Part shown: piece by piece, positions 1 through 57,789 of the stretch
Numbering within the stretch: the first letter of the stretch is position 1
Layout of the letters: every line of letters begins with the position of its first letter
Sequence record: ON528725
Length of the DNA stretch: 64,000 bases
Origin: Shigella phage ESh15
Direction: 5' to 3' (one strand)
Translations under genes and position numbers: made by a program
The notes under the pieces: model-generated
The model's database searches: none
Told to the model about the DNA's origin: nothing
The model's input: the letters and a program-made list of their open reading frames with translations, nothing else

Positions 1-698
1 CCAATTTGATTAGGCCATGCGCCTGGACTTGTTGCACCAGATTCTTTAAGCAAATCCGCCAATCGTTTTAAAAGGTCTTCACGATCTGAATCTGAATTAT
101 TCTTAGGCAGAACCAAACGAGATTCAATATCATCCCATGTGTGTACACGTTGTGCAGTACGAGGAATATCATCACGTTCACCACGGGCCAACCAATAAAT
201 CGGTACATTAAGAATTTCCGCCGCATGGTCACAGTGATGAGCTAAATCGTCAACATAACAAATCACGTTATATTTTGTTTTAGCTAGTTCGAATAATTGT
301 TCTTTTGAAGAATCATGACCACACATCATTACTTCAGAGAAAGCGCCTGGGAACAAAGCATTCAAATTAAATTGTCTATTCAATCGGGCATCAATTGAAT
401 CACCTAGCGCCGTCACGGCTACAAAATTATAGTCTTCTTTTAGTTTATTGATAACTCGAAGAGCATCCGAATAAGGCGCTAAGTAACGAATAAAATCAGA
501 GCGATTATATTTTTCTATTAATTGTTTACCAAGGTTATCGTCAGTATTGAACAGTTTACCAGGAGAAATAAATTTTTCGTCCTGAATCATTTTTAAAATA
601 TGTTCTAATGGAAGATTATATTTTTGGGCAAAATAAGGAAGTCCAGATTGCCAGCTTAAACATACACCATCAATATCAGTCAAAATAGTAGGCTTCAT
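1..698 (-). CDS. HAD-superfamily hydrolase-like protein (3' end runs off window)
   Basis: ATG at 698 overlaps upstream stop (ATGA); N-terminal ILTDIDGV fits HAD motif I (DxDGx); open frame continues to position 1. Confidence 0.45.
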   Translation of the reverse strand, partial: MKPTILTDIDGVCLSWQSGLPYFAQKYNLPLEHILKMIQDEKFISPGKLFNTDDNLGKQLIEKYNRSDFIRYLAPYSDALRVINKLKEDYNFVAVTALGDSIDARLNRQFNLNALFPGAFSEVMMCGHDSSKEQLFELAKTKYNVICYVDDLAHHCDHAAEILNVPIYWLARGERDDIPRTAQRVHTWDDIESRLVLPKNNSDSDREDLLKRLADLLKESGATSPGAWPNQI

Positions 699-1162
699 AA
701 AGAGTCTCTTAATAGGTTTAACACATCAATAAATTCAGCTTCGGTTAGTATTGTATCATCTTTTGTTAGGTGGCTAGCCATGCTGTGCTTCAAAATTTTT
801 CCTTTAGAGGCTTGTAAGGCATCACGAAACCCCTTATTTTGGATCGCGGCTTCAAAATATGCATTTGTGTATAATTCTTTCCACGCTTCAGAGTATCTTG
901 AAAATGGAACTCCTAACCAGAAGAGAGTTCCACGGTCCTGAGCTCTTGCATAAGACCTTCCAGCTTGCTGTGCAGCCAATCCAGACAACCCAAATATACG
1001 TCTTTGTTGTTCAACATTTTTCACCTTACATCCTTGGAGAAATCCTTCAAGACCTCCGAATTGAATACCATCCATAACAAAAGGCCATTGAGCAAAGTTA
1101 CTTAATGCACATGACGGCCACTTGAAATTACTTCTTATTTCTAATTCAGACATCTTTAACAC
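695..1162 (-). CDS. NADAR (YbiA-like) domain protein
   Basis: 155 aa; ALSNFAQWPFVMDGIQF..GFLQGCKV resembles the NADAR N-terminal signature (FSNF..WP..DG..E.YFQA.K); coupled to downstream HAD-like gene. Confidence 0.45.
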   Translation of the reverse strand: MLKMSELEIRSNFKWPSCALSNFAQWPFVMDGIQFGGLEGFLQGCKVKNVEQQRRIFGLSGLAAQQAGRSYARAQDRGTLFWLGVPFSRYSEAWKELYTNAYFEAAIQNKGFRDALQASKGKILKHSMASHLTKDDTILTEAEFIDVLNLLRDSL

Positions 1163-1358
1163 TTATAATTTCAACATCAGCCCAATGACCGTAACTAGGC
1201 AGACGGTCTTCAATAGATAAACCACCGTCATTTTTAAGCATTTTAATTGTCTTGATAAACGGTTCATCCTGTGGATGAATAGGCGAGCAGTCAGTTACAC
1301 GATAAGTAACTTCAATCATTTCCGTACCAAACAATTTCTGGATTAATTTATTCAACAT
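1146..1358 (-). CDS. hypothetical protein (70 aa)
   Basis: Track ORF in tightly packed minus-strand early array; no recognisable motif. Confidence 0.3.
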   Translation of the reverse strand: MLNKLIQKLFGTEMIEVTYRVTDCSPIHPQDEPFIKTIKMLKNDGGLSIEDRLPSYGHWADVEIISVKDV

Positions 1359-1599: not shown

Positions 1600-2217
1600 C
1601 TACTTAACGAAATTAATTTCTACCGGATGAACAACAGGTTGAGCAGTGATATATTGAGTAATTGCTTTCATGACTAGAGCTTCAGAACCAGGATTTTTCT
1701 CAACGAATTCACGTGCTTGGTTATGAGCTTCAAGTTCACTTAGTAAACCGCTTCGTTGGCATCCACGGTCTTGAGTACCCTGTTCAGATAAAAAGACGAC
1801 GATGTATTTTTCGTCATCATCATACGGTTTAGACGGTTGAGCAAATGTTCCTTTACTTCCGAAAGGAGAGTTATGCCGCCACATATCACCGTGAGGAGTT
1901 TCAACCTTCGTGTATTCATGCGGTCCATTTTTCTTAGTTTCTTTCCATGGAACTTCATGGACCTTAGGGTTAGGACATTCAATAAAATGCTCATCTAAAT
2001 CGGTAGAGAATATTAAAGTAAAACAATTACTGAATTTACCAGCACCTGCCTGATAAATTTTACCTTCAGAAGTTCTAATTTCACAAACTGAGCCGGCATC
2101 AGTAACTTCTAAAACTTCAAAAGGCTCGATAAGGTCATATGAGAACATGTTTTTAAGGCGTGGAGTAATATCCCCATTTTTAAAATTCATTTTATAAAAA
2201 GTATTAACTTTAAACAT
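1600..2217 (-). CDS. hypothetical protein (205 aa)
   Basis: Track ORF; RBS GAGGAAA directly upstream of ATG at 2217, preceded by a GGGAGC-UUCG-GCUCCC hairpin. Confidence 0.5.
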   Translation of the reverse strand: MFKVNTFYKMNFKNGDITPRLKNMFSYDLIEPFEVLEVTDAGSVCEIRTSEGKIYQAGAGKFSNCFTLIFSTDLDEHFIECPNPKVHEVPWKETKKNGPHEYTKVETPHGDMWRHNSPFGSKGTFAQPSKPYDDDEKYIVVFLSEQGTQDRGCQRSGLLSELEAHNQAREFVEKNPGSEALVMKAITQYITAQPVVHPVEINFVK

Positions 2218-3909: not shown

Positions 3910-4242
3910 TCACTTATAAAGACACGGAATAGCTTTATAGTGGCATGTTACGAATTTCTGTTTAATTTCTTTAGGTTGTTTAAGTCCCAAAGCCACAAAT
4001 GGATGTGGAACATTTCGAATTTGTCCAACTGGTAGTGGAGTCAAATCACCGACTTCAACAAAACCTTCAGGAACATCAGGACCTACAGAATGAACTACAC
4101 ATAGTTCAGGAACTTCACCTTGAACACGTTTACCAATCACAAGTCCTGATTCGGTAACTTCTTCATCACCTGCTTGAGCAGGTTCAGAAACCAGAATGAC
4201 ATATTCACCAACAGCACGAATTGGGAGTTGTACTTCAGACAT
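3910..4242 (-). CDS. 31: gp31 co-chaperonin (GroES analogue)
   Basis: 110 aa; [34 protein letters not shown]... near-identical to my recollection of T4 gp31. Confidence 0.9.
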
Positions 4243-4299
4243 CTTATTTCCTTGTTGTTTGACGATAGATTAATAATACCATACTATTCGTAAAGCATA

Positions 4300-4608
4300 T
4301 TACATAAGAAGCAAACGTTCTACCGGAGTACCATCAACCGAAATTACTTTATCAAGGCGGAAAGAACGCCACTGACCTAACTTGGTATCGAATGCTCGAA
4401 CTGATTCACGAGGTTCATAACGAACTTCTGTTGCCGGATTGTTATTTTCATATTTGACTTCAAGTTCATCGCGCGAAGCAAACATAGTGCGTACCTCACC
4501 GTTAGCCTTTTCAAATACAACACAATGAACGCCTACAGACAGAATAGTTTTAATACGTTCACGAAGAACCATAGTTTCTTGTTCAGTTAAAATCATATTA
4601 TTCACCAC
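4300..4608 (-). CDS. hypothetical protein (102 aa, 31.1 position)
   Basis: Track ORF between cd and 31. Confidence 0.45.
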   Translation of the reverse strand: MVNNMILTEQETMVLRERIKTILSVGVHCVVFEKANGEVRTMFASRDELEVKYENNNPATEVRYEPRESVRAFDTKLGQWRSFRLDKVISVDGTPVERLLLM

Positions 4609-5179
4609 AAAAGTTTCGAATTTGTTCCCAATTCAGAGAACGAAGATTATTACGAGAGTACTGAATTACTTCAATACCAGCTTGTTTAAGAATGTCTGCC
4701 CAATTTTCAGGAGATCGGTCATATAATTCTGCATATACAACCTTTTTAATACCTGACTGCGTAATAGCTTTAGTGCAATCAGGACACGGAGAAAGCGTCG
4801 TATATAACGTAGCACCTTCAATAGAATTACCTTTACGAGCTGCAAACAAAATTGCGTTCAGTTCCGCATGGATTTCGTTATTAGCAGACCATGCACTATG
4901 AGCGGCCCGGTGTTCTTTAGCCAAAACAAAATTATCGGCCCGTCCAAATGCTGTAGTGCCTTCTTTATGTCCAGCAACGATGACCGGACTTGGTTTATTC
5001 TTCAACCAGCCTTGTTCAGTAGCATGGTCACAACAGTTTATACCACCTGAAGGAGAGCCATTATATCCAGTAGAGATAATGCGTCCATCTTTTTCAATGA
5101 CTGCGCCAACTTTCCATGAACAACATTTTGATTCTTGAGAAATCAGATATGCAATCTGAAGGTATGTGCTAGCTTTCAT
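4598..5179 (-). CDS. cd: dCMP deaminase
   Basis: 193 aa; cytidine/dCMP deaminase zinc motifs (HAE...PCxxC) and close match to recalled T4 Cd. Confidence 0.9.
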   Translation of the reverse strand: MKASTYLQIAYLISQESKCCSWKVGAVIEKDGRIISTGYNGSPSGGINCCDHATEQGWLKNKPSPVIVAGHKEGTTAFGRADNFVLAKEHRAAHSAWSANNEIHAELNAILFAARKGNSIEGATLYTTLSPCPDCTKAITQSGIKKVVYAELYDRSPENWADILKQAGIEVIQYSRNNLRSLNWEQIRNFCGE

Positions 5180-6171
5180 TATTGAACCTTATTAATATAA
5201 GTTAACAGCTCTTTAGTTTGTTCCCAACTGATGCACGCATCGGTAATGGAAACGCCATAGGACATATTATCAGAAATTTTTTGATTTCCTTCATGTAGGA
5301 ACGATTCTATCATAATTCCTTTGACCAAATCATTAGCTGCTAAATTTTTACCAATACCAATTTGATTGCTATAATGCCCATCAGCGTTTGCATGGCTACA
5401 GTCAACCATTACATAATGATTCAGACCTACTGCCCTTGCTTTGTTAGAAGCTTCTTGAATATCAGAAGAATGATAGTTTGGGCCATTGGTCCCACCACGC
5501 AATACGATATGCGTATTCTGATTACCTTCAGCTTCAACAATGCCTACAGTACCATCGACGTCCATACCCATATACCGATGAGGCCAGGCGGCACTATACA
5601 TCGCGTCTGTAGCTACTTTAATAGAACCATTGGTTGCGTTCTTAAAGCCTACGCACATCGGTAGACCTGAAGCAATTTCACGATGTGTCTGACTTTCAGT
5701 CGTACGGGCGCCAATAGCAACCCATGAGAAAATACCAGAAAGATACTTAATCGTGAATGGGTCTAATACTTCAGTTGCTAATGGAAGTCCCATACGTAGA
5801 AGTTTACGACACAATGTTCGTGCAACTATAAGACCGTGGTTCATATCAAAACTTCCGTCAAGATATGGATCATTTACAAGACCTTTCCAACCTACGGTAG
5901 TTCGAGGCTTTTCAAAATAAACGCGCATCACTAACAGAACATTAGGAAGACGAGTTTGAAGTTCAGCCAGACGTTTGCCGTATTCAACAGCAGCAATAGG
6001 GTCATGAATTGAACAAGGACCTACAACAATAAGTTTGCGTGGGTCTTCACCGTTCATAATCGAATTAACTTGTTCGCGATGAGAAGCCACTTGTGATGCG
6101 TAAGCTTCCGACAAAGGAATAATCTCAGCCAGTTCTTTTGGAGAAATAAGTTTTCCGACGACAGGTAACAT
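5179..6171 (-). CDS. 3-deoxy-7-phosphoheptulonate (DAHP) synthase, class I (AroG/AroF/AroH-like)
   Basis: 330 aa; VVGPCSIHDP, VMRVYFEKPRTTVGWKGL, IGARTTESQ motifs as in E. coli AroG; RBS AAGGA; stop overlaps cd start. Confidence 0.85.
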   Translation of the reverse strand: MLPVVGKLISPKELAEIIPLSEAYASQVASHREQVNSIMNGEDPRKLIVVGPCSIHDPIAAVEYGKRLAELQTRLPNVLLVMRVYFEKPRTTVGWKGLVNDPYLDGSFDMNHGLIVARTLCRKLLRMGLPLATEVLDPFTIKYLSGIFSWVAIGARTTESQTHREIASGLPMCVGFKNATNGSIKVATDAMYSAAWPHRYMGMDVDGTVGIVEAEGNQNTHIVLRGGTNGPNYHSSDIQEASNKARAVGLNHYVMVDCSHANADGHYSNQIGIGKNLAANDLVKGIMIESFLHEGNQKISDNMSYGVSITDACISWEQTKELLTYINKVQ

Positions 6172-57129: not shown

Positions 57130-57789
57130 TTAACCTCGATTCATAAATGCATTAAATATTTGGTCATCAACAGAAATTTCTAATTCGACTTCAATTGCTT
57201 CAGCCTTTTCTTCAGGTGGTAATTCGTATCCACACACTACAATTTTTTCATCGATATCAAAATATACAGAAGCAATACGATTAATGTTACTTTCAGTTAA
57301 GTCTAAATCAACATCAACATCTTTTTGACCTACACTTAAAGGATAACTAATACGAGTTATTTTATTATCTTTAACAAAGAGTCCACCAACATACTCTGTA
57401 CTACGTTTGAAGTTTACACGTTTCCGAATTGAAAGATATGATACATCTTTACCGTGAGCTCGGCTCATAGGACATAATGAATAACTAGAATAAGAGATAT
57501 CAAATCCTACGCCTTCAACATGTGCCAGAGTATCATGAGTAAACCAATTATAGTCGTATGCCAAATCCATTAAATTATAATATGTGAACGGAACTGGATT
57601 AACGTCATACGTTGTACCTTTAAAATCTGCCCAGGCAACGATTTCGTTATCTTTAACAATTACAAAAATTACACCAATATGGTATCCGTTATTATTTTCA
57701 TTCGGCGTTATATTATAACATTGTGCATTAGGAAATTTACCATATTTAAACGGTGCGTTTTTGTGCATATAATAAAGCATATTATTCAC
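57130..57789 (-). CDS. protein at 61.2 position (possible AdfA anti-DarT factor homologue)
   Basis: 219 aa ORF immediately downstream of spackle, the position of T4 61.2; assignment by synteny and size only. Confidence 0.4.
   Translation of the reverse strand: MNNMLYYMHKNAPFKYGKFPNAQCYNITPNENNNGYHIGVIFVIVKDNEIVAWADFKGTTYDVNPVPFTYYNLMDLAYDYNWFTHDTLAHVEGVGFDISYSSYSLCPMSRAHGKDVSYLSIRKRVNFKRSTEYVGGLFVKDNKITRISYPLSVGQKDVDVDLDLTESNINRIASVYFDIDEKIVVCGYELPPEEKAEAIEVELEISVDDQIFNAFMNRG

Follow-up and report, generated by a model that had tools for sequence, protein, structure and literature searches.

A full-length adfN (gene 30.3) ortholog and its HAD-like neighbor, gene 30.2, in Shigella phage ESh15

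At the left end of a 64,000-nucleotide stretch of Shigella phage ESh15 DNA (ON528725; hereafter, the window), two open reading frames overlap at an ATGA, one resembling the NADAR/YbiA domain and the other carrying a HAD-like motif. The initial annotation presented them as a translationally coupled pair that adds to an ADP-ribosylation theme in this phage, which raises the question of what the two genes encode and whether they work together. In our reading, to which we give a probability of about 0.9, the upstream gene is 30.3, encoding AdfN, the downstream gene is its HAD neighbor 30.2, and the two are held together by ordinary gene packing rather than forming a two-enzyme system.

The ORF list and the translations place the coding sequences of region 1–1162 on the minus strand. 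The first frame (ORF A, positions 695–1153, minus strand) encodes 152 amino acids from an ATG that is also the start used in T4, the previously given length of 155 amino acids being a count from an in-frame GTG at position 1162. The second frame (ORF B, positions 1–698, minus strand) is cut by the left edge of the window, which retains codons 1–232 of 274; an identical full-length version of the protein (P0108, 274 amino acids) was found. Read from the sequence, the overlap occupies positions 695–698 on the minus strand and is 4 nt long, the TGA stop of adfN being the reverse complement of 695–697 and the ATG start of 30.2 that of 696–698. An identical ATGA junction links 30.3 and 30.2 in T4 and in phage 348Ecol098PP. 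On the other side, an ortholog of gene 30.4 (positions 1146–1358, minus strand, from the ORF list; PHROG 2042) belongs to the same tightly packed transcription unit and, according to the junction sequence, shares 8 nt (1146–1153) with the start of adfN. The peptides ALSNFAQWPFVMDGIQF..GFLQGCKV (ORF A) and ILTDIDGV (ORF B) were both found in the translations. The family matches of the two predicted proteins (Pfam PF08010, E = 1.8e-69, for ORF A; PHROG 420, E = 3.7e-75, for ORF B) indicate that these are real genes and not chance ORFs, and the dN/dS ratio relative to T4 was 0.05 for the former and 0.09 for the latter. The description of the ORFs, the overlap, and the peptides in the initial annotation was thus accurate, but the T4 gene names, the minus-strand orientation, and the truncation of ORF B at the window edge had been missed.

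T4 also has an annotated internal out-of-frame ORF in this gene, 30.3', of 75 amino acids. Its counterpart inside the window adfN (positions 913–1017, minus strand) begins at the same ATG and stops after 34 codons. We considered 30.3' as a conserved feature of the locus and rejected it because of this in-frame stop; judging by its interrupted frame, 30.3' is probably not a real gene.

Over its first 3 kb, the window is 97–98% identical to Mosigvirus-type T-even coliphages such as ATK47, LH01, and 348Ecol098PP. In the last of these, the gene pair is located between 30.4 and 30.1/DNA ligase, and the two products are annotated as "ybiA-like protein" (the adfN ortholog) and "HAD-like protein" (the 30.2 ortholog). 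Both T4 and RB69 are syntenic with the window locus. The comparison with the T4 30.x ORFs that had been proposed was informative, as the pair corresponds to T4 genes 30.3 (152 amino acids) and 30.2 (278 amino acids), found at the same positions; T4 gp30.3 is identical to ORF A at 147 of 152 residues (97%), and T4 gp30.2 is 83% identical to ORF B. We read the two ORFs as adjoining early genes of a T-even phage of the Mosigvirus type, with leftward transcription, in the packed cluster that runs from 30.9 to 30.1 and the ligase gene 30. Conservation was uneven along this segment: amino acid identity with T4 was 97% for AdfN and 83% for gp30.2, phage records at least 95% identical to the window protein numbered 597 for AdfN versus 148 for gp30.2, and 30.4, with about 40–50% amino acid identity in related genera, was less conserved than AdfN.

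By homology, ORF A is an ortholog of T4 gp30.3/AdfN. Its match to the Phage_30_3 family (PF08010) scored 232.3 bits against a gathering cut-off of 36 and spanned model positions 1–138 of 138. The link to the wider NADAR superfamily appeared at the level of the family and of the fold. The window AdfN alone had no match to the Pfam NADAR model (PF08719) at E ≤ 1 and none in a search of NCBIfam, and a single-sequence phmmer search of the PDB was empty, so that a family profile and a fold search were needed. Among the 55 homologs of the AdfN family alignment, which extends down to 35% identity, 19 matched PF08719 (best E = 1.5e-7). In a search of the PDB, the family profile matched E. coli YbiA (2b3w; E = 0.0031), with an alignment covering the SNF...E...K motif, precisely the segment singled out in the initial annotation, in which E36 and K43 of AdfN align with the YbiA motif. 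The AlphaFold2 model of ORF A (pLDDT 93.6) includes a helix at residues 138–151, and its top three Foldseek matches in the PDB were 2b3w (E = 4.8e-4, TM 0.68), 8bau, and 8bat, corresponding to YbiA, a Phytophthora NADAR with ADP-ribose, and a Geobacter lovleyi DarT-associated NADAR, respectively; the next match after these three NADAR structures had an E-value above 4. Family-level profile and predicted fold are thus consistent in placing ORF A in the NADAR superfamily, which bears out the resemblance first noticed in its N-terminal region.

The residues expected of an active enzyme are also present. The catalytic glutamate E36 (codon GAA, positions 1046–1048, minus strand), the catalytic lysine K43 (AAG, 1025–1027, minus strand), and H123 (CAC, 785–787, minus strand) were invariant in the alignment of 55 homologs. 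H123 adjoins the strand formed by residues 120–122 of the model; since phage NADARs are defined by a histidine in the last strand (PMC11125620, PMC11543638), we take it to be the mark of the phage gp30.3 subfamily. The window protein shares its fold and the Glu/Lys catalytic pair with the NADAR antitoxins of the DarG1/BC4488 type (G. lovleyi 8bat, E. coli C7) and with YbiA (2b3w), and probably also their guanine-ADP-ribose hydrolysis, to judge from its T4 ortholog. It differs from them in being shorter and at the last-strand position, where AdfN has His, DarG1 has Asp, and YbiA has Glu. Unlike those antitoxins, it is not accompanied by a DarT toxin: no DarT ADP-ribosyltransferase gene lies adjacent to the window adfN, whose neighbors are 30.4 and the HAD-like 30.2. 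The gene is thus an orphan antitoxin-like gene, as already described for phage adfN (PMC11257639).

The function of AdfN has been established in T-even phages. Johannesman, Carlson, and LeRoux mapped T-even resistance to DarTG1 to gene 30.3, renamed it adfN, and reported that the T4 and T2 proteins are necessary and sufficient against DarTG1, that the E36A and K43A substitutions abolish the function of T4 AdfN, and that purified AdfN takes ADP-ribose off DarT1-modified DNA (PMC11257639). A second group observed hydrolysis of guanine-linked ADP-ribose in vitro by the T4 protein (PMC11125620). Independent confirmation came from a transposon sequencing study of T4, in which 30.3 was dispensable on K-12 and insertions in it were lost in the presence of DarTG1 (10.1101/2025.11.20.689424); on the sheet of its supplement that we assigned to DarTG1 by inference from the sheet order, the text of the paper, and the value for 30.3 itself, the log2 fold change of 30.3 insertions was -7.25 (q = 0). 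On the same DarTG1 sheet, insertions in 30.4 were also depleted (log2 fold change -1.79, q = 0.014), which is most simply explained by a polar effect on adfN. The association of NADAR proteins with the reversal of guanine ADP-ribosylation by DarT-type toxins, raised in the initial annotation, is therefore well documented for the T4 ortholog; the idea was correct but already known, as adfN has been characterized.

Applied to this phage, the mechanism would run as follows. The host DarTG1 system would sense infection, DarT1 would ADP-ribosylate guanine in the phage DNA, and replication would be blocked; AdfN, as a phage-type NADAR, would then hydrolyze the N-glycosidic linkage that joins ADP-ribose to guanine by means of E36, K43, and the subfamily histidine H123, and removal of ADP-ribose would restore the DNA and allow the phage to replicate. 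This mechanism was shown for the T4/T2 protein, and we infer it for the 97%-identical window allele from sequence. A different target has been considered for these enzymes: in vivo, the main substrates of NADAR proteins might be soluble derivatives of ADP-ribose, or immune signals, rather than DNA. Contextual arguments for phage NADARs that predate the work on DarT point in this direction (PMC9503650), as does the observation that AdfN does not detoxify DarT1 in uninfected cells: outside infection, E. coli was not rescued from DarT1 by AdfN (PMC11257639, PMC11125620), and AdfN cannot substitute there for DarG1. This failure means that the substrate preference of AdfN is only partly understood. 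However, the purified protein clears both DarT1-modified DNA and guanine-ADP-ribosylated oligonucleotides, and the phenotype is seen specifically with DarTG1 and requires the catalytic residues (PMC11257639, PMC11125620; transposon sequencing supplement), so that a mainly soluble target appears very unlikely to us, and DNA-bound ADP-ribose is retained as the probable substrate.

Is the window allele itself likely to be functional? It resembles T4/T2 AdfN in its orthologous position, its length, its E36/K43/H123 residues, its intact C-terminal helix, and its ATGA junction with 30.2, and differs from the T4 protein by five substitutions (K11R, E89P, I120V, M125I, and H128G). The phages differ in their background as well, T4 DNA carrying glucosyl-hmC while the window phage has a Mosigvirus-like background (arabinosyl-hmC in RB69). 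RB69, the type Mosigvirus, offers the closest genomic background, with a shared gene order, and is sensitive to DarTG1, an extra T having shortened its AdfN by 15 residues (PMC11257639). In our four-way DNA alignment of the window, T4, 348Ecol098PP, and RB69, this extra T was present in RB69 only; it brings the stop forward by 15 codons and separates adfN from 30.2 by 42 nt, and the window has neither the extra T nor the gap. The window adfN encodes a full-length protein, including the C-terminal helix that the inactive RB69 allele lacks. With its catalytic residues all kept, ORF A is therefore presumed to be an intact, functional adfN, its activity being that expected from the 97%-identical ortholog.

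The window also contains a homolog of AdfA (T4 gp61.2) at positions 57133–57780 on the minus strand, 97% identical to the AdfA of RB69. At the residue corresponding to RB69 position 164, where T4 has His, the window protein has Arg, and the Arg allele has been reported as unable to neutralize DarT1 (PMC11257639). Because AdfA carries this non-neutralizing allele, AdfN is predicted to be the only working anti-DarTG1 factor, and by analogy with phages Bas46 and Bas47, the window phage probably relies on AdfN alone for DarTG1 resistance. Such sole reliance would be relevant to the choice or engineering of T-even phages against E. coli strains bearing DarTG1.

The second gene was recognized by other means. 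The PHROG 420 family to which ORF B belongs is annotated as "unknown function", and sequence models were of little help: no Pfam HAD model reached its gathering score for gp30.2 (HAD_2, 16.1 bits versus 23.8, E = 0.013), an NCBIfam search gave only noise (TIGR01428, 12.6 versus a cut-off of 125.4), and the precomputed Pfam field was "-" for nearly all homologs, with PF11243 for one. The assignment therefore rests on motifs and fold. Conservation of the four HAD motifs was scored on 47 homologs of gp30.2, down to 39% identity. In motif I (D8-I-D10-G-V, positions 663–677, minus strand), which contains the nucleophilic aspartate and a second aspartate at +2, D8, D10, and G11 were invariant in all 47. 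K132 of motif III (AAA, 303–305, minus strand) was also invariant, and T96 of motif II (ACG, 411–413, minus strand) and D150-D151 of motif IV (GAC GAT, 246–251, minus strand) were conserved in at least 90% of members. An aspartate at +2 of motif I distinguishes phosphoryl-transfer HADs from dehalogenases. The AlphaFold2 model of gp30.2 had a pLDDT of 89 overall and was of high confidence over residues 1–195; a C1 cap is made up of helices at residues 16–86, inserted between motifs I and II, and a test of the model for the HAD core fold found the Rossmann-like core with its cap. A Foldseek search with this model gave 114 PDB matches at E ≤ 1e-3, and among the best 50 of these 114, nearly all were HAD-superfamily proteins, one being a computationally designed esterase (3u13). 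By its motifs and its modeled fold, ORF B is thus the gp30.2 ortholog and a C1-capped HAD-superfamily hydrolase, a predicted phosphatase, and the HAD-like character proposed from the ILTDIDGV peptide has been extended to all four motifs and to the fold.

Compared with T4 gp30.2 and PHROG 420, the window protein is an ortholog that lies between 30.3 and 30.1/30, with 83% identity over the catalytic domain, but the family tail beyond about residue 200 is variable, modeled with low confidence, and partly outside the window. The C1-capped HAD phosphatases cdN/mdN (2jao, 1mh9) and YfnB (3i76) have in common with gp30.2 the Rossmann-like core, motifs I–IV, the aspartate at +2, and the helical cap inserted after motif I; identity is only 12–18%, gp30.2 has no Pfam or NCBIfam model at threshold, and the substrate-binding residues of these phosphatases have no assignable counterparts in it. 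An exhaustive profile search enlarged the gp30.2 family to 1,138 cluster representatives. In two members, P0262 (591 amino acids) and P0307 (660 amino acids), a 30.2-like HAD domain is fused to a long N-terminal region; Pfam scans of fused or distant members detected no informative partner domain, the N-terminal regions of P0262 and P0307 being unmatched. Our literature search found no biochemical data on gp30.2 homologs, its broader form being swamped by the numeric string "30.2".

With this architecture, gp30.2 would be a HAD enzyme of the aspartyl-phosphatase type, dependent on Mg and covered by a helical C1 cap. Since a C1 cap usually implies a small-molecule substrate, the most likely target of gp30.2 is a small phosphorylated metabolite, and our best guess would be a nucleotide or a sugar phosphate. 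A more specific possibility is a nucleotide phosphatase resembling 5'(3')-deoxyribonucleotidases, which would adjust the nucleotide pools of the infected cell without any involvement of AdfN. At the sequence level, gp30.2 had a single PDB match, mouse cytosolic 5'(3')-deoxyribonucleotidase (2jao), with which the DGV...W/F-x-SGL segment following motif I aligns; Pfam NT5C (PF06941) was matched weakly by 7 of the 47 family members; the best target-normalized TM-scores were those of the deoxyribonucleotidase-like 3bwv (0.70) and of cdN/mdN (0.62–0.64); and depositors have named homologs "5'(3')-deoxyribonucleotidase" or "5' nucleotidase". Against this, the E-values were not significant (0.16 for the family profile versus 2jao in the PDB, and at best 0.002 for NT5C), the structural similarity to deoxyribonucleotidases was no better than to other C1-capped HADs, and T4 30.2 had no phenotype in LB, in M9, or in the defense conditions that we read. 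We therefore hold this assignment as tentative, and doubtful rather than probable.

It remained to be decided whether adfN and 30.2 are more than neighbors. Through the ATGA overlap, 30.2 may be translationally coupled to adfN; overlaps of this kind, however, are the local norm. In T4, genes overlap by 4 nt at five of the eight junctions between alt.1 and 30.6, and a crude gene set for the minus strand of the window (87 junctions) included six overlaps of 4 nt, seven of 1 nt, two of 8 nt, and three of 11 nt. The ATGA at 695–698, correctly reported at the outset, is thus ordinary gene packing. The association of the genes was then counted within ±4 kb windows of 73–80 loci. Of the 80 viral loci centered on AdfN, only those of close T-evens and a single more distant one have a 30.2 homolog directly next to it; in six others the distance is 0.7–1.2 kb, and in most no 30.2 homolog occurs within 4 kb. 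Of the 73 loci centered on 30.2 and complete on both flanks, 35 have 30.3 within 4 kb, including 15 in which it abuts, and 30.2 stays closer to the DNA ligase gene than to 30.3 (see below). In at least 10 complete genomes of about 170 kb that are represented in both sets, the contig ranges place the two genes approximately 55–60 kb apart. We also considered their phyletic co-occurrence: 30.3 was found in 1,510 phage records and 30.2 in 1,439, with a nearly identical genus breakdown. This was rejected as evidence for a functional link, as both genes are near-universal in T4-like phages.

The interpretation closest to the initial annotation is a two-step ADP-ribose module, in which AdfN would release ADP-ribose or a phosphorylated form of it, gp30.2 would dephosphorylate or otherwise detoxify this product, and the coupling would set their stoichiometry. 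YbiA and YigB both act on riboflavin intermediates, which we counted for this proposal. The ATGA overlap is kept in Tequatrovirus, Mosigvirus, and related genera, and also at a locus (L017) with 47% identity; 30.3 and 30.2 abut across several T-even genera, and they share their phyletic spread; and one source names a 30.2 homolog "FMN phosphatase YigB". These points are outweighed by the genetics. Plasmid-expressed AdfN alone restored the plaquing of RB69 on DarTG1 (PMC11257639), and 30.2 is intact in RB69 even though this phage has a broken adfN and has lost the overlap. In the T4 transposon data, 30.2 was non-essential, with 72 of 72 sites hit, and its insertions were neutral under DarTG1 (log2 fold change -0.12, q = 1), where those in 30.3 were lost, and in LB versus M9 (-0.10). 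Together with the generic nature of tight overlaps across the cluster and the loss of adjacency in most relatives, up to the separation by tens of kilobases mentioned above, these results make such a module improbable. A related proposal concerns the ancestral order 30.3-30.2-(30.1)-30, which might represent a DNA damage-reversal cassette, AdfN stripping ADP-ribose, gp30.2 cleaning a phosphorylated DNA end or disposing of a phospho-ribose product, and the ligase sealing the strand; alternatively, gp30.2 might be a counter-defense phosphatase acting on a nucleotide-derived immune signal under conditions other than those screened so far. Either version seems to us a long shot. We argue instead that the two genes stand side by side because their order was inherited within a packed early transcription unit, and that they do not constitute a two-enzyme system. 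The functional pairing first proposed is thus not supported, nothing links gp30.2 to ADP-ribose, and a contribution of the HAD protein to the ADP-ribosylation theme is not supported either.

The locus is ordinary and readily annotatable, and this region can be annotated with confidence as adfN, predicted to be an intact enzymatic anti-DarTG1 counter-defense gene, followed by 30.2. The loose ends of interest are the substrate of gp30.2, a catalytically intact enzyme conserved in about 1,400 sequenced T4-like phages, yet one that had no phenotype in the screens that we read, and what, if anything, its lasting closeness to the DNA ligase gene means. In the 30.2-centered loci (L086–L158), ligase gene 30 lies at most 700 nt downstream in 63 of 73, a position far more constant than that of 30.3, which may reflect either function or backbone synteny. 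At another locus (L027, positions 4001–5732), a DNA-ligase homolog (33% identity) comes immediately after an AdfN homolog (41% identity), without an intervening 30.2. Finally, elsewhere in the window, an ORF of 205 amino acids (positions 1600–2217, minus strand; PHROG 17531, unknown function), in common with 348Ecol098PP, sits where T4 and RB69 have gene 30.6, of about 95 amino acids.
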